Source: Adineta vaga
Taxonomy: Eukaryota; Animalia; Rotifera
DNA: 64,000 nt
Assembly (NCBI GenBank): GCA_021613535.1
Contig: CP075497.1
Coordinates: forward strand, 8,866,001-8,930,000
Direction: 5' to 3'
Shown here: one piece after another, positions 33,781 to 62,800 of the stretch
Position numbering within the stretch: position 1 is the stretch's first letter
Layout of the letters: each line of letters opens with the position of its first letter
The notes under the pieces: generated by a model
What the model saw: the letters and a program-made list of their open reading frames with translations, nothing else
Databases searched by the model: none
Told to the model about the DNA's origin: nothing
Position numbers and translations under genes: made by a program

Positions 33781-35394
33781 TCAATTATTGTTAATGCTAT
33801 TTGTGACTGCATACAAATCCCAAAAGCCGGAACAAGTAGCATTATAATAATAATTTCTCATTCGTGAATCGATATTAAGAACAAAATCATTGTCAGTGGA
33901 TGTCTGATAAGGATCCCAAGTTGTTAGATTTTTAGCATAGTTAGGATTCGATGTGCGAATAAAATTAGCCCAATATATCATTATATTCTTTGAGAGTTGT
34001 TGTTCCAGAATGGTGAAATTGTAGTGTGGATATAGATTTTGAAGTACAGTAGGAAAGAGCATTGGAAGTTCAGCAGCATGAGTGACGCCGAAACATGATG
34101 GTGCAACCGGTATAAGATGATTATATGTATACAAATAAGAAGGTAATCCATGCGTAGAGAATATAGAAGCAATACGTCGAGATCCACAATGTAACCAAGA
34201 ATTACTGTATACAATATTGAGATACGTTAATGGATTATTAGCAGCAGAAATAGGGCCATAGATAGTAGGAATTTCATCAGCAATAGTAGCATTATATGTG
34301 GTATTGAAGAATGCTTGTACTTGTGTAATATTAGCCGTTCCATTAAAAACAGGACATGTAAATAAAGATGTTTCATTTGTATTAGCACCAATTAAAATAG
34401 GAACCTTTTGAAATTTTCCTTTGGCATAGTTATTCTCCATAGTATTATCTAAAACGTAATTGTCAATAACTGGATTGGCAGCTAATCCAAACATATTTTT
34501 TGATGAAAGGATACTCTGAACTTTAAGGATTTCCTCAACTGTTAAATCACGTAAACAGCGTAATGTGGTACAATTCGTTAGAATTCGCAAAACATTACCA
34601 CTATCATTAATAGCAGTTTGTAACGTGCTTACTGCGTTAGGCCATACACTACCACTCTGTACAATAGCTCGTTGAAAGGTATCATTTGTAGTTAATAATG
34701 AAGTTAATAGAATGGTAACACTGGCACCACCAGCACTTTCACCACCGATAGTAATTTCTTCAGGATTACCACCAAAACCACGAATGTTCTTTTTTATCCA
34801 ATCTAGTGCTGTCAGCTGATCTAATATACCATAATTACCAGTAGTGCTTTTATTATGCATGCCCGATCGTTCGTCAAACAATGCCTTGTCTGCGAGAAAA
34901 CCAAGTAGTCCAAGGCGATAATTAATTGTCACGAAAACGACAGGAATAGAATTGTTCATACTTGTGCTAACGAACGAAGTAGCTTCATACTCTACGCCAG
35001 CTCCTGAAGTAAAACTACCTCCATGAATCCAAACATATACAGGCAAATTAATGGCATCATCAGGAGCGTATACATTCAACGTGAGACAAGATTCGGTAGC
35101 TGGAATGCCATAAGTATTTCTTTGTGGACAAGCATTCGGAATGTAGGCATATTTTGTCCCATTTGAGGCTGCAAGAGCTTGAGAAGGTTTCCATCTAAGC
35201 TCACCAATAGGCTGTTGAGCATAGGGTATACCATACCAATAGTTAACAGTCGTGTCATTCATTATTTGCTGACGACCAATATAGACACCTTGTTGTGTTT
35301 GAGCTGTAGGCGAATTATTATTGGCTATAATAACTGGAATAAATAATGATAATAATAATACAAATTCAAACGATCCTATCATATTCATTCTCAT
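33781..35394 (-). CDS. Secreted type-B carboxylesterase (alpha/beta hydrolase), intronless
   Basis: Signal peptide, then GIPYAQQPIGELRW, ESCLTLNVY, WIHGGSF, NYRLGLLGF, nucleophile GESAG, acid residue in NTNET and His in GVTHAAEL. Many NxS/T sites. Confidence 0.95.
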   Translation of the reverse strand: MRMNMIGSFEFVLLLSLFIPVIIANNNSPTAQTQQGVYIGRQQIMNDTTVNYWYGIPYAQQPIGELRWKPSQALAASNGTKYAYIPNACPQRNTYGIPATESCLTLNVYAPDDAINLPVYVWIHGGSFTSGAGVEYEATSFVSTSMNNSIPVVFVTINYRLGLLGFLADKALFDERSGMHNKSTTGNYGILDQLTALDWIKKNIRGFGGNPEEITIGGESAGGASVTILLTSLLTTNDTFQRAIVQSGSVWPNAVSTLQTAINDSGNVLRILTNCTTLRCLRDLTVEEILKVQSILSSKNMFGLAANPVIDNYVLDNTMENNYAKGKFQKVPILIGANTNETSLFTCPVFNGTANITQVQAFFNTTYNATIADEIPTIYGPISAANNPLTYLNIVYSNSWLHCGSRRIASIFSTHGLPSYLYTYNHLIPVAPSCFGVTHAAELPMLFPTVLQNLYPHYNFTILEQQLSKNIMIYWANFIRTSNPNYAKNLTTWDPYQTSTDNDFVLNIDSRMRNYYYNATCSGFWDLYAVTNSINNN

Positions 35395-35691
35395 CGTTGA
35401 CAATACCGTGTATATAATTTACTCGTTTTTCAGTATATTTAAGTCAGTAATATCGACACAAATATGGTTGAAGAACTATGATAATAATTTTGTGTAAACG
35501 ATTCTGTTTCTCATTCAAAAACAAGAGAACGAGATAAACATGAGTAATATCAACATTACAATCTTCTATACTTGTCACATTTGAAAATACTCTTTTATTT
35601 ATTCCAATTTATCAACATAGTTTCTCTGTGATAGTAGAAATTTATTCGAGACATAAAAATATGCACTACATAATACAAAAAAAAACTTTGA

Positions 35692-36405
35692 TTAAAGTTT
35701 GCTTTGAATTGCATCAAAAACTAATGTTGCTATTCGATCATATCCGGCAGGTGTTAAATGAATAGAATCATCCCATATTTCATCTCGTTCTTTATCAGAA
35801 TTCAAACTATGATATGGAATGCCTTTATCTAAATCAACTAAAACAATTCTATCTTGTTCATTGGATTTAGTCACATAATCACGAATCATATTATTTAACG
35901 CTTGTCTGGCTGCATCATTGGCATCTACTGGTGAAAAAATTGCGTTTTCAATTACAGTCATCACTGCTAACTTAGTTTTTGTTTGTGTGTTATTAAGACA
36001 CATATCATACATTGGTTGTAAACCATTATTGAAAATCTTTTCAGCAGTTTTTGAAGAATCAGCTAAATCATTTGTACCACCTAAAATAATAACCCAATCG
36101 TATGCAGCACTTGTATTTAAGAGACGACGAAGTCTATTAACCATGGTTGGTACAACTCGTTCACCACTAATACCTTGTTGTTTTATCGTTACTGGAATAT
36201 TAGCAGATTCAAATAATTCTGTTAAACGTTTAGCATATGGATGAAAAGCTCTTCCATATTTGTAATAACCTTCCGTCAGTGAATCGCCAATAGCAAGTAT
36301 TGAAATTGGCGCTTTTTGTGGTTGATTCCCAGCCATATAAAATAGAATACTACTTACAACAATAACGATGAGAAAGAATATAAAATATAAAGTCCTATCC
36401 TTCAT
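35692..36405 (-). CDS. SGNH/GDSL-family hydrolase with N-terminal membrane anchor, intronless
   Basis: All four SGNH blocks present: GDSLTEG, GISGE, LGGTNDL and DSIHLTPAGY. Confidence 0.93.
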   Translation of the reverse strand: MKDRTLYFIFFLIVIVVSSILFYMAGNQPQKAPISILAIGDSLTEGYYKYGRAFHPYAKRLTELFESANIPVTIKQQGISGERVVPTMVNRLRRLLNTSAAYDWVIILGGTNDLADSSKTAEKIFNNGLQPMYDMCLNNTQTKTKLAVMTVIENAIFSPVDANDAARQALNNMIRDYVTKSNEQDRIVLVDLDKGIPYHSLNSDKERDEIWDDSIHLTPAGYDRIATLVFDAIQSKL

Positions 36406-49656: not shown

Positions 49657-50069
49657 GTAGTTACTGATTGTCAATATGATGAGCTAAACTATTCTCGTTC
49701 TATCTGCTTTATTTAATAATAGGAAAAAAGAAAGAAACGTTCGTCATTCTTCTTCTTCTTCTTTTTTTCTTCGTTCCTTTTTTTTTCAAAACATACATAT
49801 ACAGCTACTATTTGACACATTTTTCTTCTCTCATTTTGCTCTATTAATAATAATGACGCCACAATGAACACTTAAGAGAAAAGAAACGTGGTAAAGATAC
49901 ATACTAAATAATGACAACGGTTCCTGAATCTGAAACACTACTTTTAGCACGACGCGATTTGTCAGAGCAGGGCTATGTAAGAAATCATTGTTGATCAGAA
50001 GAAGAAAATCAAATCTAATTATTATTCTAGCGTTCGAGAAGGATTGATCCTGTTGAACAATCATCGTCA

Positions 50070-51691
50070 ATGATGACATCTAAACAACATGAACGTGTAA
50101 CAACTGGTTTTGGTTCAGAATGTATGTTAAATACAATTTTGATGATTTTATTCGAATATATTATTGCTATATTAGATGACATACGTAATACAGAAGAAGG
50201 TTTCGGTACTTGTGGATGGATTTTAGTAATTATATCTCATATTTTGTGTGCTTTGACATTTCCATTTTCGCTTTGTATGACAGTTAAAGTAAGAAATCAC
50301 ATTATTGTAATAAAAAGTTTTAAGATTGAAACAAATAGGTTGTACAAGAATATGAAAGAGCAGTAATTATGCGTCTCGGTCGGATTCTTCCTGGTAAGAA
50401 GATGTATGGAAGATGACTTTCTATACTTCTGCTTTTGCTTTTCAAGGTGGTGCCAAAGGTCCTGGCTTATTTTTTGTTTTGCCCTGTGTTGATTCGATTA
50501 TCAAAGTTGATTTACGAACTAGTAAGCGTTACATACCGATTTATTCCATAGAGATATCAATAATCTATAATGATCTCTCGAGAAGATTAATATAGCATAT
50601 TTTTTATTTAGTTACCTTCGATGTTCCTCCTCAAGAAATTCTCACTCGGGATTCTGTGGTGCGTAATTGATCGAATCATTCATTGACTAAAAAATTTCCT
50701 TTTCCTCTACTAGACTGTCTCAGTGGATGCTGTGGTTTATTTTCGAATATTTAATCCAATTATAAGTGTAACCAATGTAGAAAACGCTCGTTATTCAACA
50801 CAATTACTTGCTGCAACAACACTGCGTAATATTTTGTAAGTTAATAAAGTTAATGCAGAAAAGATAAAAAATCTTTTGAATGATCATTTAGAGGTACAAA
50901 AAGTTTACAAGAAATTCTATGTGATCGAGAAAATATTTCACATTCAATGCAAGTTCATCTTGATGAAGGCACAGATCCATGGGGTGTTAAAGTAGAACGT
51001 GTCGAAATGTTAGTTATTTCAATTTAGCTATCTTTCTCTTTCCTCATCTAACTTCTGTGTCATTTATTTCTAGTAAAGATGTACGTCTACCTGTTAATAT
51101 GCAACGTAGTATGGCTGCAGAAGCCGAAGGTTAGCATGTCTTCGATTGTCTTTTTTTTCTGTATTCGATAACATTTTCTTTGAACATTTAGCTGCTCGAG
51201 AAGCTCGTGCAAAAATTATTGCAGCTGAAGGTGAACAAAAAGCTTCAAGATCTTTAAAAGTAAGACACATTTTTTTTTCTTTGTGTACTATCGTAATACG
51301 AGTAGGTTAACATTAGTTTGATTGAAAAGAAATTCGTCGAAAACAGTTATTGAATCTGAATCACGCAACTTATTTCTATACATTCATATTTCGACATTTA
51401 TATTTTCCATTATGAGGTTATTAGAAGAAATCATAAGAAAATTCTTTTGTTTAGGAAGCCGGAGATGTTATCAATGAAAGTCCTATTGCATTGCAATTAC
51501 GTTATCTTCAAACCTTAACACATATTTCTGCAGAAAAAAATTCAACGATCGTTTTACCCATTCCTGGTAAATCTTTACAATACATTTCTAATCATTTGAT
51601 TGATTGTTTTTCTTTTTGCTGTTTTTTTTCAGTTGAACTACTAAAATTAATGAAAACTCGAAGTGAAATGCATGTAACTAATGATTTATAA
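50070..51691 (+). CDS. Stomatin / band-7 (SPFH) protein
   Basis: [113 protein letters not shown]. Confidence 0.96.
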
Positions 51692-51779
51692 GAACAAAAT
51701 CTGTGATTGTTCATTTTCTATTCATATGCGTATAAATAAAAATCAGGAGTAGTGTTCTCTATTTTTCTTTCTTTTGCAA

Positions 51780-52532
51780 TTATTTATTCATATATTTATC
51801 GTACAAATAGGAAGCAAGACCAAATCGTGCCCATTCGGTTACAACTGTTTGAGCTGTTTGTAAAGCAGTCACCGGAAGCGATAAAGAAGACGTTTGTTGT
51901 TCTGGATCATCTTTGATTAGCGTTATTTCTCGATCATCTTTTTCCTGATGAATATGTTTCATCATATCATCGATCAATTTAGGAAAATCATATTTGCTTT
52001 TCTCTTTCGTATTGATTAGATAAAGTGAAAGTTCAGTAACAGAAAGACTTGCTTGAAGATTTTGAAGACAATTATCACGAATGAGATTAAGAACATCAGT
52101 AATATTAAAATTGATTGGATAGTCACGACGATGATTTCGTAATTCTTCATCAATACCAGTTCGAATGAAGAAAAGTGTTTTATTAAAACGATCTCGAACA
52201 ATATCACTTAACCAGAGATCAATTTCTGTAAAACGTCCACGAGATAAAATTAAAAACATATCATAACGATTACTATCAATTAATGTACAATAATCATTCT
52301 TCGAAATCGTTGGCGTTGAAACACCTGGCACATCCCAGATGAAAACATTTTCAATTAATTTATAAGATGTTGGTGTTAAAGTTGTTTCAATAACGCCAAC
52401 TGGGGCGGATTCTGTTTGATCTGGTGATAGACCAAGAATTGAATTACATATAGAACTTTTACCGACACCTGAACGACCGAGAATCGCAATGTGATACGGT
52501 GCATTTGGTGGCCGATATTTAATTGTGGGCAT
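51780..52532 (-). CDS. IRG/p47 (IIGP)-like GTPase 3, intronless, G-domain only
   Basis: G1 GRSGVGKS, GVIETT switch I, G3 WDVPG, YDMFLILS..RFTEIDLWL, G4 region FIRTGID, YDFPKL. No IRG C-terminal helical domain. Confidence 0.88.
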   Translation of the reverse strand: MPTIKYRPPNAPYHIAILGRSGVGKSSICNSILGLSPDQTESAPVGVIETTLTPTSYKLIENVFIWDVPGVSTPTISKNDYCTLIDSNRYDMFLILSRGRFTEIDLWLSDIVRDRFNKTLFFIRTGIDEELRNHRRDYPINFNITDVLNLIRDNCLQNLQASLSVTELSLYLINTKEKSKYDFPKLIDDMMKHIHQEKDDREITLIKDDPEQQTSSLSLPVTALQTAQTVVTEWARFGLASYLYDKYMNK

Positions 52533-52654
52533 TCAAAAATCTGAAATTGAAAATGATACTTATCACCGATTTGTTTTGCATTATTAATCGTATAATTACA
52601 ACCATTGCGAGAAACTTAGAAAGAAAATTGTCAAATACAAGTTTAAAACAAAAG

Positions 52655-54179
52655 TTAGATCAAAGCTTGTCTCTGTTGTTCTTCTTGAATCATTCGATTC
52701 GATACATCTATGACGACATCAATAATTTTCAAAGATGCCTGTTCCATTCGTATAAGAATTTTATATAGAACACCATAACAAACACCAAATGATAATGTTG
52801 ATACAATCGCTGTTCCAACATATGGAACATATCGAGCAAATTCACCCGGGGCAGCTCTAATTGCTTGTTTTTTTGCAAAATCAAAAGCAAATTTTCGTAG
52901 AGAATTTAAATGTTGTAATGGAAAGATTTCATTTAATTCTTTTTCAATTCTTTGCATTGGAATTTGATAAACTTGAGATAATTTCAATAATGCGTCTTGA
53001 TCTAATCCTAATTGTTTTTTATAAAATTCAACTTCACTCATAACTAATGTTGCATCGAAACCAAGTGAAAGAAATGGTACTGGCACAACTGCAACAGCAG
53101 CTGATGCTGATGCTATAATCCATATTCGACGATGTAATGCAGCAACTTTTGCTATCAAAATTTCTTTACACGTGACTGACATGGATAGTATCATTGATTC
53201 ACGTTTCAATGATGGATAATCACGTACTAATGTTTCAGTTAATTTTCCAAAATCAAAACGTAAACGATTTTTTAAATGACCAGATATAAGGAAGACTTCA
53301 GCAGTGGAATCAATTGGTCGAATATGTTCCAAACAATTATTTCGAATATGTTGTAAAACTTCGTCTTCGTTATATGTACTTGGATGATCTTCATATTCGT
53401 TATGTAAATCTGAATCGATATTTGTCCGAATAAATAGAAATCGTTTGTTTTTAGTTTTTACTTCTGATGCTAACCATAAGTCATTTTCTAATTGAAAAAT
53501 AGAAAGAAAATAATTTTAGATAAAAAGCTCTTCGTCTTACCAGTAAAACGTGTTCGACAAAGTATGAAAAAGAAATCATATCGTTCAAATTGAATCTTCT
53601 CTAAATAACATGAACGAGGATAATTCGGTGTACCAACACCTACAATCAAAATTCTTTTGTTCTAGTCGTATTAAAATCGATGAAAACAAATATTTAACCT
53701 GGCAAATCCCATATTTTTAGATTAGGAAAATCTGGATGTTCATATGCTCTTGGTTCATTTGTTGTTTCAACTATACCAACATCAGCTGAACCATTATCTT
53801 CTGCTTCTAAACCACGAAAGCAGTTAATAAACGTAGATTTACCAACTCCACTAAAACAATAGTCAATCAATTATTCAAATACAATATTTTATGATCATCT
53901 TCAATATCGAACCTTGAGCCAACAACTGCAATATCTAAAGGATGTTCCTTCCACACATTCAATCGTTGTGATAAATACGTATCTAAACCATTAACACCAT
54001 TTCGCTAAACATATAAATATTTATATAAGATCAAAGAAAAATACAACTGAACTAACATGAATAAATGCTTCGGCTCCTCGTACTTCTTCATCAGTAATGT
54101 ATTGAAAATTTCCACCGGTTGTAATCGATTCAACAAATGGTTCACGATAAAAAAATTGTTCAAAATCTGAGAAATTCAT
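52655..54179 (-). CDS. IRG/p47 (IIGP)-like GTPase 2 (5 exons)
   Basis: PLDIAVVGSSGVGKSTFINCFRGL..ADVGIVETT..YEHPDFPNLKIWDLPGVGTPNY..RFTENDLWLA..FIRTNIDSDL..FLISG..FDFGKL, followed by the C-terminal ASASAAVAVVPVPFLS helix typical of IRGs. Confidence 0.92.
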
Positions 54180-54292
54180 ACGTAATCTTAAATAGAAAAA
54201 AAAATGAACACAAAGACGAAGATATTTTGATTCAATAAATTATACAATACAACAACGAAAAAAAATCACTCATATAATAATTATAATTCTTA

Positions 54293-55966
54293 TCATATAA
54301 GTTCATCATCATCTTCATCATCGCTTATACTTCTTTCAGCAACAATATCAATTAGTGCTAATGCTGCTTTTTCCATAACATTTAATAAATTTCTTAGAAC
54401 AGATAAAATAATAGAGAATGAAACGGTCGCACAAATGACTGAACCAACATAAGGAACATATCGAAGAACTTCTTCTGTTGCTGTTCCAACGGCTTGTTTT
54501 TTAACTAGCGACACAACAAATTCAGGAACAGCAGTAAAAAAATGTGCTGGTAAGATCTTTTGTAATTCATCCTGTATAACATATACTGGTATATGATGAA
54601 TTTGAGCGATACGTGCTAACGATTCATCATCTAATCCTAATTGTTTCTTATAAAATAAGACAAAACCAACCGTTAATGAAAAATCAAACATAACACTAAG
54701 ACCAGGTATAGGTGGAGTAGCAACAGCAGCACTGACAGCTGCTGCTACCCATGTTTGACTACGAAGAATATCGACTTTAGCTCTGATCACGTCTTTACAA
54801 TTCGTTGACATAGCTAATATCATTGCATGCCGTTTTAAACCAGGATAATCTCGTAAAAGTGCGGAACACATGTTAGGAAAATCAAATCTAAACAAATTTC
54901 ATATATTTAATATTCAATCAAACTAAGAAATCAATTCTTACCGTGATGTATAATTAATCCTTCCACTGATAAGAAATATATTGGCATTATCATCGACTGT
55001 TCGAATGTGTGTAAGACAATTATCTCTAATTCGTTCTAATATTAATGTTTCATTATAATTTTTTGGATGATCAATTTTTTCATTATATAAATCTTGATCA
55101 ATATTTGATCGTATAAAGAAAAAACGTTTACCAATTTTTTTGATTTCATTTGCAAGCCATAAATCATTTTCAGTGAAACGTGTCCGTGAAATGATTAAGA
55201 CTAAATGAAACAAAAGAGTCGATGAGATATTTGAGTTCACTGAGACAAAATATATTCGTACAGAAATCATAACGAGATAGATTTACTTGCTCGAAATAAG
55301 TTGATTTTTTAAATTCTAATGTTCCAACACCTTAAATCGTAATTGAAGGTTAAGGTAGAGATGAGAATAAAAAAGCAAGAAAACCAAACCTGGTAAATCA
55401 TAAAAGATAAGGTTAGGATAACTAGGATGTGAATAGGATTGCACAATTCGTGTTGTTTCAATTACTCCAACTTTTGCTGCACCTTCATCCTCTAAAATCA
55501 AAATCAGTATTAGTTATACAAATTACATAGTTGATTGATAATATTAAGAAAAAAACTAGCGTTCAAATTATTCTCAAATAGTAATCAAAATTTAATAATT
55601 ACCTGCGCGAAGATTACGTAATGTATTGATTAGAGTCGATTTTCCCTATTTGAATAAAACGAAATATTCAGTTATTCTTCTCAGAATTCATAATTGGAAA
55701 ATATCATGCATGGGTACATACTGCTCCTGAATCACCAGTAATTGCAATATTTAGTGGACTAAAGTAAGAAAATGTCTTCAATAAGACAGCGGATATTCAT
55801 GAAAAGAAACGAACCATTTTCTCCATGCATCTAGTCGTTCTGCAAGAAAACCTTCAATTCCACGAACTCCATGTTCATTAAGATGTTTCTGTGCTGCAAC
55901 TTTATCATCTTCTGATAAATCTACCATATCATAATCAAATGGCGGTACATTTGTATTACTTGCCAT
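54293..55966 (-). CDS. IRG/p47 (IIGP)-like GTPase 1 (7 exons)
   Basis: PLNIAITGDSGAGKSTLINTLRNL..AAKVGVIETT..YSHPSYPNLIFYDLPGVGT..RFTENDLWLA..FIRSNIDQDL..FLISG..FDFPNM..AAAVSAAVATPPIPGLS. Confidence 0.92.
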
Positions 55967-56145
55967 TTTTTACTTATGAATCAGTTAATCATCTAGAACG
56001 ATAATGATTCATCGATGATACATTTTATTTATTCCATCTCTTTTTTTTTCTTTCTACATAAATGAAATGAAAGACAAAAATAGAATACATTATATACAAA
56101 ATAATATGAAAAAAAATAGATATATGTATATTTATTTATTGATAT

Positions 56146-59100
56146 TTAGAATCCATTTGTATCTGACATTGTCGTTTGATTTTGATGAATATTTGTACTA
56201 TGAGAATCGTACGAATTTGCTTGATCCGTATGTTCAGTCATTGTAATATCGTGTTCATCTTGACTATGACTAGGATTCGTTTGTTCGTGTGACGACCTGA
56301 AATGATAATGGACATATTAATCAGATTTGAATTTTCAATGAATTATAATTTGCTTACATAAGATGAGATTTCTTTCGTTCTTCTAATTTTTTAGCAAAAA
56401 GTGCTGGACGAAGTGATGCTGTTTGAGAACAATTATTAACTTTATAGATACCAATGAGATAATCAGCTAATGTAAACATATTTTCACGTAATGAAATAAC
56501 AATGAATTGTGCCTAAAAAAGAAAAGAAATTTTGGTGATTAACAAAATATGATAAGGATCTTTTTATGATCATTTACATTTTTAGTTCGTTCTTTGATAA
56601 AGCGACCAACAATTGAGACATTCTTAAAATCAAGTGCAGCATCAATTTCATCCATAACGTAGATAGGTGTTGGACGAAATGTATGTAAAGCAAAGACAAA
56701 TGCTAATGAACTTAAAGTTTTTTCACCACCTGATAAATTACAAATACGTTTCCAAGATTTCTTTGGCGGTCGAATACTAGGAAAAAGTGATTCGATATGA
56801 TGAAAAGACACACGTTTCCTCCAAAAAAAAAGTATCTACCTTAATTCAACGCCATCAACAAATGGATCGTTACTTGAACAGAATTCTAATTCAGCATCGC
56901 CACCATCGGTTATAGTTCGATAAATATGTTTAAGTGTACGTGAAATTTGATCAAAACCAGCTCGAAATTCTGTTTGACGTTGTTCATTAAATCGATCACG
57001 TTTTGCACGAATATGATCACGACGGGTTTCGAGTTCAACTAAATCTTTCTGTCGAAGATTTAAATTACGATTCTTGACAGAAAAAAGATAAGTTTTAATA
57101 CATGAATCAATTAATCAAAGATTATCTTACAGCACGACGATGTTCACCAATGGCAGTAAGATTACAATGTGTTTGTTTTAATTCATTTTCACGTTCTAAT
57201 GTTGCTGCAACTAAATCTTTCATTGTATAAACATCGAGATCAGAACGATCATATTTCTGTATATGAACTTCTTTAAGAAAATTGGCCGATGTACTTTCAT
57301 CAGAAATATCTTCTTCATCTTCAATTACATGACTTAAACGTAAGCCACTAATCTAAAAATATATTCATATAACTTTTCTTTTTCACGATAAAAATCTCTA
57401 GAAAGAAACATACTTCAACATCAATAACACCAATTTCATGTCGACATTGTGCTAATTCTTTTTGTGCTGCTTCATAGTCGTGCTTTAAATGAACAATTTC
57501 TTTTTCAATATCAGCTAGTTCAGCTTCTGTGACACGAATTGTGTCACGTAATTCAGCCATGTTGGTTTTATTTGTTTCTGATTCGTTCTAAAAGAATCAA
57601 ATGAAGATGTTCTTCATTGATTAGATGTTTTTATAGCAACTGACTTCAATTTCGTTTTTCTTTTCATCAGCAGTTTTCGCTAATTCTTCCAGTTTTTCTA
57701 ATCTTGCATTGAGATCGTCACGTTTTTTCAATATTTGATCAATCGCTGTTTGATTAGCTTTCACTTTATCCTGACTTTTTTTTAAATTTCTAAAAAAAAG
57801 ATTCAAATAAAGCACATGAATGAAAACATCGATGTCATCACACTAACCGACGAGCATTGGTAATTTCGACATTAGCTGTATCAATGATATTTTGTAATTG
57901 TTTAACTTCATTCACAGCATTGTCAAGATCAGCTTGTGGTTTAGCAAGTGCAAGTTTATTATGATCATTGATACGTTTCGTTACGCTAGAATGGAACATA
58001 TATATGAGAGATGGTCTCACAAATAAAAAAGACTAAACTTACACGTCAATTGCTGCTTTTAATTTTTCGAGTTCATCATTGGCCACGTCATATTCTATAT
58101 GAAGAAAAATGAATAAATAAAGAAATCAAATTAGTTACAAGTTACCTTCTTTTGTTTGTTTCAATTCCTCATCATAGGTTTCTCGATCTTTTGTTGAAAC
58201 TGTTTTTGATTCAACAAGTTTTTGTTGTTTTTCAACCGATGCTTTTAATGTTTCGACATGATTTGGTAGATTCTACAACATAAAACATGTTCAATTCTGA
58301 TTTTATAACTATCTTCATATTCAAAATTTACTTTGAGATCATTTTTCACTTGAGTATATGTTCGTTTTTCATCAGCTAATTTTTGTCTCAATTGTTTCTC
58401 TTCAGTTGTTAATTGAAAACGTTGTTGTTCAAGTTCAGTTAATTTTTCTCCATCCTAAATTAACGAAAACAAAACAAGATCTTCCCGGGGTTTTTTTTCT
58501 GCTCATAAAATTGATCTCACTTCTTTAACACTTTTTTCTAATTGATTCTTTTTCGCTGGATCAATTGTTATACTTTGTCGTGCTGAGATTCGATTATCTG
58601 CTGATTTCAATGTCATTTTACCACGAGCTTGATATGAACCACCACCAGACATGGTACCTGATTGTTCAATGATTTCACCTTTAAGAGTAACAACACGATA
58701 ACGTGTTTGACTACCAAATGCAACTTTTTGTGCATCATCAATATTATCAACAACGAGTGTATCACGAAGAACATAATAGAATGTATTTTTATATACCGAA
58801 TCATTAATATCAATTAAATCAAATAAACGATAAGTATTCGGTGCTAATTGTGGAACATCAAAACGACGATTGGCTTGTTGAGCATGACGCAGCATTTTAT
58901 CCATACAAATAAAACTGCCAGTACCTTGTTTATGTTCTTTAAGAAGATTTTTAGCTGCTTCACCACTTTTAACATCATCAACAACATAATAATCAAGATA
59001 ACCACCTGCAGCTGTTGAGATAGCAACATCATATTTACTATCGATATTAGCTGAAATAAGAGAACAACCATATATCTATCTTCTGAAATTTTTCAAAAAA

Positions 59101-61121
59101 GATTTTCTTACCAAGACCACCCAATCGTTGATGAAAACCATGCAGTTTTCCTTGTTGTTTTTGTCCAAGAAGAAAATTCAACGTTTTATCACGACTTTGT
59201 GTTGTTTGCATTTGTGAATTCATATTATTTAATTCTAATTGATTTTGTCGAAAACGTTTATCAATAACCGTATATTCTTGTTCAATATCTTTCAATACTT
59301 GTTCTTTTTCTCGATGTAATTCTTCAGTTTGAATAAGTTGTTGATCAATATCACGAAATTTGTCTTGTTTTATTTCAAGTTCTTTCTGTTTATTTTCATA
59401 ATCATTTTTCATTTCATTTAATGTATTCTTATGTCGTTCTTCTTCACTTAATAATAATTGTAAACGATTTTGTGCTAATTCATAATCTTTCTTCTTATTC
59501 GCATATTTATCTTGTTTAAATCGATTACAATTATTAGTTTTTTCCGTTAATTCTTTTCTCCATTCTTCTGTTTGAGGCAATAAATCTTGTTTTAATTTAT
59601 TTAATTCGGATTCGAATTTTTCTTGTTCCATTTCAGCTACTTTCAATTTCTCTTCTGCTTCAGTAATTTCGTTCGATTTTTCATTTGGTATATTTTCCCA
59701 TGTTTGAATTTTTGTTGTTTCTTGTTCGTTTTGTTTTTCATATTTCTTTTCTTGATCAAAACTTGTTTTTATTTCATGTCGAATCGTTCCATCTTCGGTT
59801 TCATAATCGACAAGTGATTTTTTTAATTTTGTTAATTCATTATTATTTTTATCATAAGATTTTTGAAGACGATTTAATTCATCTTGACTTTGTTTACATA
59901 ATTGTTTTTTTGCATGACATTGTTCATTGGATTCTTTCATTTTCTCTTCTCGATCAGTGTATTTAACAGTAAGAGCAACTTCTTGATCACCTAATTCAAA
60001 TCGTTTTAATTGTAACATTTTAGATTTGGATAATTTATAATCATTATCACATTTGATAAAATCTAATGCTTGTTGATAAGGACCATCTAATTGTTGAACT
60101 TCATTCTGAGCAGCTTTAACACGGTTTTTCTATAAAAATTTCAAAATTTTTCATCAAAGCTTTTTGAACAAAACTTTTATCTACTTTTTCAGCCCACATT
60201 GCACTCAATTCTTCCACTTTTAGATTGAGTAATTCTAATGGTTTTTTAAATCGTTCTGTACCAATAATATCTTCTAAATATTCAAGAAAACCTTGTTCAT
60301 GTTCATTAGCTGCGATTGGTTTCATCATTGCAATTGATTCGACATCACCCTTTAAAACTCGTTAATGTATCAAATGATCTTTTTAGAAGAAGAAGAAGAA
60401 AACATACTTGAAGAATTAAATATCGACTATGATCAAGATCAACACCATATTCACGTAATAGTTTTGTCACTTCTTTTAATGAAACTTGTTTTTCATTGAT
60501 TTTATAATGACTTGAATTGTCCGGAAATGCGATACGTGTTATAGAAAAACGTATTTTTTCTTTTTCACCTTCGATTGCTATTGCTTCGAAATGGACAGTT
60601 ACCGAACAACTCTTTACATCTGGACATTCCGCACTATTATGCAAAAGTGTACTCAACTTAGCACCACGCATTTTCGAAGCACGATGACCAATCACAAAGA
60701 GAAGTGAATCAATAACATTACTTTTACCTAATTTAAAAAATTCATTGAAAGATTTTACATATATATTTCTACACGTACCGCTGCCATTAGGTCCGATGAT
60801 ACATGAAGTGCTAGAATAGAAAATAGATGGAAATACTAATAAGATGAATGTTAACTTTTCATACTTCATCGAATTGATCAAGTTGAATACGACCAGCAAA
60901 TGATTTGAAATTATTAATTTCAATTTTATTGATAACAAGACGATATTTTGGTGTTAGAAGTGCTTGAATATGTTCAGGTAATGGTGGTAATTCCAATGTT
61001 TCAACATCAATTTCTAAATAGACAATATTTCGTTTATTTATGCAGAAAAAAACCCTTTTTGTTTATTATGATTATCTATACCTTCGTCGGCACCTTCATC
61101 TTCTTCTCCTTGATGAGTCAT
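56146..61121 (-). CDS. SMC4: Structural maintenance of chromosomes protein 4 (condensin)
   Basis: NFKSFAG..CIIGPNGSGKSNVIDSLLFV Walker A, GVDLDHSRYLILQGDVE, long coiled coils, hinge RLGGL..DTLVVD..YRVVTLKGEIIEQSGTMSGGG, then RPPKKSWKRICNLSGGEKTLSSLA and PTPIYVMDEIDAALDFKNVSIV. An apparent 2-nt lesion lies near 60805. Confidence 0.96.
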
Positions 61122-61441
61122 GAAAGGCGAATATCTGTGTAGAATAGATTCTGATTTCTCTGAACAAATGATCAATGACAAATGTAAAGAAAAACGAACA
61201 AAAAACGAAACGAACTTTTCAAGATAACCAATAAAGAAAGACGTCTTAGTGTAAAATGACCAATAGAAGCAATGTTCTGTCTGAAGCAACTGACATAGAT
61301 GACGCTAAAGACTTCCTGTAGGAAAATCCTCAAATCTTTAAGCAATAAAGAAGTTGAAAGTGACTCTATTATCTTTTGACAATCAAAAAAATGAAATTAA
61401 TGTTTTATTTCTATAGAGTGAAAATCGTCCTGAATCTGTTT

Positions 61442-62800
61442 TTAATTCGATGTGTTTTCCCAAACAATTTTTATAGTATAAACACGTAACATTGAAGGTG
61501 CAGGATAAGGAGGTGGTCGCGGTTCATCACGATTACTACCTAAAGTTTCCCAACGTAATATAAAACGAATATTTGAGACATTGTATTGACCAGAATCTTC
61601 CAAAAGTCGTACGCCTAAACCTGGAAATGTACCTTCTACTTTTAGAAGTGATGGTGGTATGGTTTCTCGTTGAAGTTTACCAGTAGCATTCAAATTTTGG
61701 GGATCAATTGACCATGTACCATTACCAAATTTAATATGACTAAATGTTTGTGTTAAATTTCCATCCGTTTCTTTCGTTACTCGTCCGAGTGAAATAGCAA
61801 AACTCAATGTACCTCCACCACCGAAATCCCAGTGCCATGGCCAATTTGTAATTTGATATTTTTTCCACATACCATTTTCTAATCGTGCTGTCCATGGTTG
61901 TGTATAATTTTGTGCATCATTTTTATGATAACTAATCGTCACACGTCCTTGTTGATCAAAACCAATCTTTGTATTACCATTGATAATTCCACCTTTTTGT
62001 GGAACAGGATCAACAATCTCACATGTTTCTAAAGTGATGGGTAATGTTAATGATTTGCCAGAACTAGTTTCCCAAGATATTAAATCTTTACTACGTGCAT
62101 AACTAAGATCATGATTTGTTGAAGCATCTGGTGATTCACGCCATACCCATGCTAAATGAAAATAACCATCTGGACCTTTGATTGGTCCATCGAAATATGC
62201 ATTACGTTTGCCTTCACCATCTGTTAGCGATTTATCAAGTAGACGTCTCCATGTTTTCGTTTTCAAATCATATATATTATAAATCTGATTGCCATTACCA
62301 CTCATACCTGAACGATATGTAAAGATAAATTCATTTCCTGGTCCACGCATAAATATCGGATAAGTTGTACGATTCTCATCTGTACCAATCATTCGATTTA
62401 ATTCAACAAATGTTGAAGCATTCAATGGTTGTGCTGTACGGAAATATACCAATGGTACAACATGCATATTACCACTCAAATGTATATAACCATCATCATC
62501 AATTGCCATTGCAATATAATTATGACTATCCCAACCTGTAACTACTGGTAACTTATTGATTGTCCATACACGCTGGTTTAAATTACGTTGTGCAATGGTC
62601 ATCTGACGTTTTGCATCATAATACGCAATAAATTGATATGATGCTTGTGTCAATAAAACGAAATTTACGGGATGTCCAGCCCATACCGGTTCAATATCCA
62701 ATAAATCGATGACAATAGCATGTTCAGTTTTATTATCTGTCAAGCATGTAATAGTGGGTAATGCTAACGTACATACAATGATAGTAAGGAGAGAATGCAT
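61442..62800 (-). CDS. Secreted BNR_4-type beta-propeller protein (putative polysaccharide lyase/glycosidase), intronless, bacterial-like
   Basis: Signal peptide; WDSHNYIAMAIDDDGYIHLSGNMH, TYPIF, YRSGMSGNG, TNHDLSYARSKDLISWE (Asp-box-like) and GGIING. I recognise this motif series from bacterial BNR repeat-containing family proteins. Confidence 0.85.
   Translation of the reverse strand: MHSLLTIIVCTLALPTITCLTDNKTEHAIVIDLLDIEPVWAGHPVNFVLLTQASYQFIAYYDAKRQMTIAQRNLNQRVWTINKLPVVTGWDSHNYIAMAIDDDGYIHLSGNMHVVPLVYFRTAQPLNASTFVELNRMIGTDENRTTYPIFMRGPGNEFIFTYRSGMSGNGNQIYNIYDLKTKTWRRLLDKSLTDGEGKRNAYFDGPIKGPDGYFHLAWVWRESPDASTNHDLSYARSKDLISWETSSGKSLTLPITLETCEIVDPVPQKGGIINGNTKIGFDQQGRVTISYHKNDAQNYTQPWTARLENGMWKKYQITNWPWHWDFGGGGTLSFAISLGRVTKETDGNLTQTFSHIKFGNGTWSIDPQNLNATGKLQRETIPPSLLKVEGTFPGLGVRLLEDSGQYNVSNIRFILRWETLGSNRDEPRPPPYPAPSMLRVYTIKIVWENTSN

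Follow-up and report, generated by a model that had tools for sequence, protein, structure and literature searches.

A putative gapless operon of SMC4 and three IRG-type GTPase genes of Adineta vaga, a bdelloid rotifer

Are four closely packed genes of the bdelloid rotifer Adineta vaga transcribed as one unit and separated by spliced-leader (SL) trans-splicing? The question was raised by a block on the minus strand of a 64,000-nucleotide (nt) stretch of DNA (contig CP075497.1, positions 8,866,001 to 8,930,000; hereafter the window). In this block a gene for the condensin subunit SMC4 (ATG at 61121, stop ending at 56146) is followed by three genes for IRG/IIGP-type GTPases, IRG1 (55966-54293), IRG2 (54179-52655) and IRG3 (51780-52532). 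The initial annotation had read the block as a polycistronic unit, and its order, strand and spacers of 179, 113 and 122 nt from stop to next ATG were borne out by the gene models; the short same-strand spacing is that expected of an SL-resolved operon. On balance, we lean towards SMC4-IRG1-IRG2-IRG3 being an operon without intercistronic DNA, of the type of Ciona and of the C. elegans SL1 operons rather than of the nematode SL2 type. Four observations supported co-transcription of IRG1, IRG2 and IRG3: a poly(A) tail at one acceptor, the end of a contig at another, spliced contigs without a break and a conserved gene order. For SMC4, which is likely the first gene, membership rests on conserved order and on a 3' untranslated region (UTR) reaching 56024, 31 nt from the next acceptor AG.

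Of 21 listed runs, which consisted of assembled contigs and of which none is recorded as RNA, seven were aligned. They were read as RNA because introns were skipped at their predicted ends and because the region 61188-61500 above SMC4 was silent in runs X1, X5 and X14, its only cover being an 18-nt chance match. The two sets of contig alignments cover 32 of 168 and 29 of 77 pieces, 23 of 49 and 14 of 17 loose ends, and 15 of 27 and 15 of 18 joints, and what is said below of pieces, ends and joints refers to these. In X6, the match of an IRG2 contig ended at 52540, immediately past the AG at 52542-52541, and 12 A without a genomic template followed on the minus strand; the poly(A) site of IRG2 (52540-52542, minus strand) thereby coincided with the acceptor AG before IRG3. 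No other poly(A) tail was present in the loose ends listed, and the chance of its falling at 52540 was 1 in 102 UTR positions, or 1 in 33 counting A positions alone. Internal priming was rejected as its source, with genomic A at only 6 of 20 nt. At the IRG1-IRG2 junction the coincidence was indirect: contig 11 of X17, which held all IRG1 exons in spliced form, ended at 54186, in the same AG+A register, with no A's on it. Judging from how contigs break, such an end is expected where the assembly forks into a tail and a genomic T.

Both IRG junctions were crossed by unbroken contigs. Contig 8 of X17 ran from 53487 to 52330 across the IRG2-IRG3 spacer with two IRG2 introns removed, and contig 8 of X14 ran from 54887 to 54057 across the IRG1-IRG2 spacer; these contigs retained the stop codons and the spacers. 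At the SMC4-IRG1 junction, an SMC4 contig of X17 reached 56024 and an IRG1 contig began at 55977, leaving at most 46 nt, and no RNA piece listed crossed or ended at 55993. Organisms C and D, alike at about 90%, gave six readable downstream 5' contig ends, of which three lay no more than a few letters from the AG: IRG3 contigs starting at ~52542 and ~52543, together with a single IRG2 contig starting at ~54186 (computed with no indels assumed). The other three, all of IRG1, lay off the AG, and one of them bore 12 unlisted letters.

Each spacer carried an acceptor-like AG shortly before the downstream ATG. Spacer 1 (55967-56145, minus strand, 179 nt) consisted of the SMC4 3' UTR with four AATAAA (at 56140, 56136, 56033 and 56029), the acceptor cattatcgttctag with its G at 55993, 31 nt past the AATAAA at 56029-56024, and a 26-nt 5' UTR of IRG1. 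Spacer 2 (54180-54292, minus strand, 113 nt) consisted of the IRG1 3' UTR, an AG ending at 54187 and a 7-nt 5' UTR of IRG2, and held none of the 14 polyadenylation hexamers tested. Spacer 3 (52533-52654, minus strand, 122 nt) consisted of the IRG2 3' UTR, with no AATAAA and with AACAAA 29 nt above the IRG2 poly(A) site, an AG ending at 52541 and an 8-nt 5' UTR of IRG3. The initial annotation had the second and third AG at these positions; it had set the first at ~56003, about 20 nt after the AATAAA at 56024-56029, which had to be corrected to 55993 and 31 nt.

The AGs were scored with a splice weight matrix built from 27 introns of these genes, the true introns being scored leave-one-out. The acceptors at 55993, 54187 and 52541 scored 9.1, 11.4 and 5.6, and those of true introns -6.2 to 11.5 with a median of 6.4. 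Scores this high were reached within 30 nt before 2.0%, 0.5% and 8.6% of 2861 window ATGs and were matched by 1.8%, 1.2% and 16.7% of shuffles (5000 per spacer). Fourteen starts were scored, four of them from the block. Of the ten others, which were picked by hand, the neighbouring BNR gene and seven of nine further starts stayed below 5.6, and two reached at least that score, one of these two probably belonging to an internal exon; the positions of two starts were off by a few bases. At 40-135 nt upstream of the acceptors, the best donors scored 3.7, 1.8 and 2.4 (true donors 3.2 to 9.4), and no joint listed used the AGs; an acceptor without a good cis donor preceded each of the three downstream genes. 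That no obvious consensus donor lay at intron distance, as first stated, was borne out; the site at 56057 in the first spacer (3.7) fell within the true range and is a possible weak donor. Since more than half of bdelloid transcripts carry the SL (PMC1925144), an acceptor before an ATG by itself indicates trans-splicing and not an operon.

Gene order in other bdelloids was deduced from the stepping of protein accession numbers along contigs, not from a map, and with at most four accessions per protein misses are not losses. For the order check proposed with the initial annotation, this measure showed that IRG3 adjoined IRG2 in eight of eight other species, and SMC4 lay two genes off in seven of them. 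For A. ricciae, no SMC4 accession was retrieved from such lists of up to four. Among 54 IRG2 accessions from the eight species, at least 40 had IRG3 within 25 numbers and at least 38 had SMC4 within 60, and IRG3 and SMC4 lay on opposite sides of IRG2 in all 26 cases with both. In Rotaria magnacalcarata, the four genes stood in order (CAF1620629, -24, -20 and -16); in Didymodactylos carnosus, CAF1002967, a fused SMC4+IRG1 model, was followed by 1002954 and 1002934. Fused IRG2+IRG3 models were found in R. socialis; in these predicted proteins the joint lies two residues ahead of the IRG3 Met, and there, too, an acceptor may directly precede the IRG3 ATG. Judged by accession adjacency, the unit is older than the divergence of Adineta, Rotaria and Didymodactylos. 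No related DNA locus was found on prokaryote and viral contigs. D. carnosus also had a 438-amino-acid (aa) model (P0054, P0161; CAF0765004, CAF1201087) in which pieces of SMC4, IRG1 and IRG2 follow one another as in the block; it may stem from a second, degenerate copy of the block or from contamination with a contig of another bdelloid.

The proposed operon would work as follows. Transcription would start above SMC4 from a single promoter, consistent with a contig start near 61187 and the silent stretch above it. The RNA would run through the IRG1-IRG2 and IRG2-IRG3 junctions, as the unbroken spliced contigs suggest, although overlapping messages would do likewise. The 23-nt bdelloid SL would be joined at the AGs ending at 55993, 54187 and 52541, and the resulting messages would be capped and retain 26, 7 and 8 nt ahead of the ATG. 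Each upstream message would end at the same AG and be polyadenylated there, as was seen once for IRG2 and indirectly for IRG1 and as is predicted for SMC4. The trans-splicing cut itself may make the upstream 3' end, as proposed for Ciona, and the AG closing the 3' UTR of one gene likely doubles as the trans-splice acceptor of the next.

Several observations weigh against such an operon. The poly(A) tail came from one contig of one run (X6), and the X17 end at 54186 bore no A's; a heterozygous site at 54185 would give an equal end, and a contig end at a variant site does occur in X17 (52404). The unbroken contigs may be read-through RNA or overlapping messages and need not stem from one molecule, and X14 and X17 share a sample code and are thus not independent. 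Most upstream contig ends lay off the AGs (IRG2: 52563, 52536 and 52517; IRG1: 54363, 54339 and 54666; SMC4: 56136, 56110, 56038 and 56024), and in organism A (X17) the IRG1 contig began at 55977, away from the AG. The letters of the SL were absent from the loose ends listed, contigs being apt to drop short side branches. By sequence alone, the third acceptor is not beyond chance, because 16.7% of shuffles and 8.6% of ATGs equal its score of 5.6. The last gene, IRG3, likewise had no AATAAA in 140 nt scanned, and the absent hexamers are therefore not specific; SMC4 carries four AATAAA, two of them directly after the stop. Bdelloid neighbours may stay together at some background rate, against which the conserved gene order would have to be weighed.

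A rival reading is that of four independent genes in a compact genome, with IRG promoters within the 3' part of the preceding gene and overlapping messages, the AGs being outron acceptors of single-gene trans-splicing or unused. Overlapping messages also yield unbroken contigs, as where contig 1 of X1 joins IRG3 with its convergent neighbour; single-gene trans-splicing is common in bdelloids (PMC1925144), tandem paralogues (here 40-48% identical) stay adjacent without co-transcription, and the missing leader letters fit as well. We consider independence unlikely, if still a serious contender: it leaves unexplained why a tail should sit precisely on the AG that lies 8 nt ahead of the following ATG, and why a second end has the same register, and SMC4, unrelated to the IRGs, holds its place in seven of eight other species. 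Rather improbable in our judgement is an SL-resolved operon with ordinary cleavage and polyadenylation near the acceptor. The same holds for an operon confined to the three IRGs, in which SMC4 would use AATAAA signals of its own for its 3' end and IRG1 would have its own promoter. The SMC4 AATAAA 31 and 35 nt above the AG with two more after the stop, the AACAAA above the IRG2 site and the lack of any listed RNA piece ending at or crossing 55993 would agree with these variants, but SMC4 RNA to 56024 and IRG1 RNA by 55977 leave at most 46 nt, and spacer 2 has none of the 14 hexamers. Mature messages of two or three genes, translated without leader splicing, would account for the spliced contigs across both IRG junctions; this is very doubtful, as IRG2 has its own poly(A) end in X6 and the acceptor-like sites would be left unexplained. 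We give hardly any credence to the AGs being the 3' ends of cis-spliced introns, whether these lie in 5' UTRs or within fusion proteins such as the database models P0110, P0116 and P0154. Fused models of 681 and 1734 aa do exist and the weak donor at 56057 is at hand, but none of the joints listed (15 of 27, 15 of 18) uses the AGs at 55993, 54187 and 52541, the crossing contigs keep stops and spacers, and operon genes are known to be wrongly annotated as fusions (PMC7986045).

One rotifer SL consensus is given in Table 1 of PMC3795323. The rotifer leader was not found in the window with up to three mismatches allowed, Rfam gave no match in 51500-62000, and a leader-derived peptide was absent from the N-termini of the proteins listed. 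The supplement of PMC10809525 held no id matching these genes. A metagenome scan for the end of the leader joined to an IRG3-like start returned 88 stretches, none of which encoded an IRG and which matched at most 6 of 11 further leader letters; they were attributed to chance. Holes at 52404-52516 in four runs were dismissed, the region being covered in X17 with a variant at 52404, and 22 loose letters after 56038 (X14) and matches at 54194-54322, 56116 and 61436 were dismissed as chimeric or low-complexity.

Leader trans-splicing in bdelloids has reportedly been known since 2005 (Pouchkina-Stantcheva and Tunnacliffe), and monogonont rotifers seem to be without the leader (PMC1925144). The closest likeness of the proposed operon is to the gapless operons of Ciona intestinalis (Satou et al. 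2006; PMC1488885), which also comprise same-strand neighbours with the upstream poly(A) site at the downstream acceptor AG; unresolved transcripts across the boundary and the use of one leader are features that the block would share with them. The upstream cistrons there lack AATAAA in 16 of 18 cases, as spacers 2 and 3 do here. The Ciona operons differ in that the leader was mapped on full-length cDNAs, whereas its use here is proposed, and in having mostly two genes, here four. The different phylum, together with the seemingly leaderless monogononts (PMC1925144), points to an origin separate from that of the Ciona operons. The SL1-type operons of C. elegans and C. briggsae (10.1101/2021.09.24.461604; PMC1488885) likewise have no intercistronic region, and AATAAA shortly above the AG, as at SMC4-IRG1, is found in the three characterised C. 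elegans cases. They are a rare nematode class beside SL2, whereas in the block AATAAA is missing from spacers 2 and 3 and the leader is presumed.

The initial annotation had invoked resolution of the nematode kind. SL2-type operons (PMC7986045) share with the block short spacers and an acceptor before each downstream ATG, but employ a second leader and separate the poly(A) site from the acceptor by about 100 nt; in the block this distance was 0 at the one mapped junction (IRG2-IRG3), and the upstream 3' end seems to fall on the downstream acceptor, as in Ciona. Operons of the chaetognath Paraspadella gotoi (PMC12460157), also a gnathiferan, resemble the block in having genes less than 250 bp apart and, on the proposed reading, in having no operon-specific leader, and differ in having been defined genome-wide with SL reads. 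In its available part, that paper mentions rotifers once, in a general statement that gives no data, and says nothing of a poly(A) site falling on an acceptor. In agreement with the initial annotation, which knew of no characterised operon in this group, a literature search by titles and abstract openings, subscription papers aside, gave no description of a rotifer operon, nor any literature on bdelloid IRGs; 'operon' and 'trans-splic' were absent from the main texts of PMC8494291 and PMC11258130. Satou et al. (PMC1488885) called the convergence of Ciona and C. elegans gapless operons a very important open question and posed the tailing of the branched upstream RNA as another. If the operon is real, bdelloids would be a third, culturable lineage with seemingly leaderless monogonont relatives, in which both questions would be testable. 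Bdelloid annotations would then be expected to hold fused gene models, and neighbouring genes, perhaps foreign ones too, might be expressed without a promoter of their own.

SMC4 comprised 18 exons and about 1330 aa, with 13 of its introns found among the 15 of 27 joints; its orthologues are labelled 'Structural maintenance of chromosomes protein' or 'structural maintenance of chromosome 4'. In exon 3 (at 60805-60810, minus strand), the window sequence lacked 2 nt present in the X1 and X14 RNA contigs. The shortfall shifts the frame ahead of the Walker A motif, where orthologues read through, and probably reflects a misassembly or else a null allele. IRG1 (418 aa, seven exons) had all six introns matched by RNA joints in X17 and was 85% identical to the R. 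magnacalcarata protein P0075. The spliced model of IRG2 (432 aa, five exons) was identical to the database protein P0043 (UJR37379.1, A. vaga I4U23_030085), and from this identity the source of the window is Adineta vaga. IRG3 (250 aa) was intronless and the last gene of the block.

Pfam analysis gave IIGP (PF05049) with 262.7 bits for IRG2 (E 7e-78), 147.2 bits for IRG3 (E 9e-43) and 51.2 bits for the last exon of IRG1, at a cut-off of 24. With these matches and the G1 GKS and G3 D(L/V)PG motifs, the three proteins were assigned to the IRG family by sequence; all three read T/S-N/G-I-D at the G4 position. Pairwise identity among them was 40-48%, and Didymodactylos had a separate orthologue for IRG1, IRG2 and IRG3 (72, 62 and 56% identity). 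IRG3 spanned Pfam positions 34-228 of 375; it was missing the N-terminal portion and the greater share of the C-terminal helical region, and was conserved at 70-88% in most bdelloid matches despite its short form.

The 320 nt between SMC4 and the gene above it (61122-61441, minus strand) are a candidate promoter region, where the promoter of the unit likely lies. The X14 contig of SMC4 was computed to start at about 61187, and it passed two acceptor-like AGs of SMC4 itself, at 61159 and 61134 (minus strand), which lay 38 and 13 nt before the ATG and scored 7.3 and -12.3. The upstream gene (61442-62800), a BNR_4 gene on the same strand (Pfam PF15892, E 2e-90), was intronless and encoded a secreted protein; it had its own AATAAA at 61409 and, among the pieces listed, no cover in X1, X5 and X14. 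It is presumably of foreign origin. Elsewhere in the window, at 33781-36405 (minus strand), two hydrolase-like genes without introns, which by eye resemble a carboxylesterase and an SGNH hydrolase, lay head to tail about 300 nt apart, without an acceptor-like AG before their ATGs. On the other side of the block, a plus-strand gene at 49911-51700, which we take from its translated exons to be stomatin-like, was convergent with IRG3, the two stops being about 130 nt apart.

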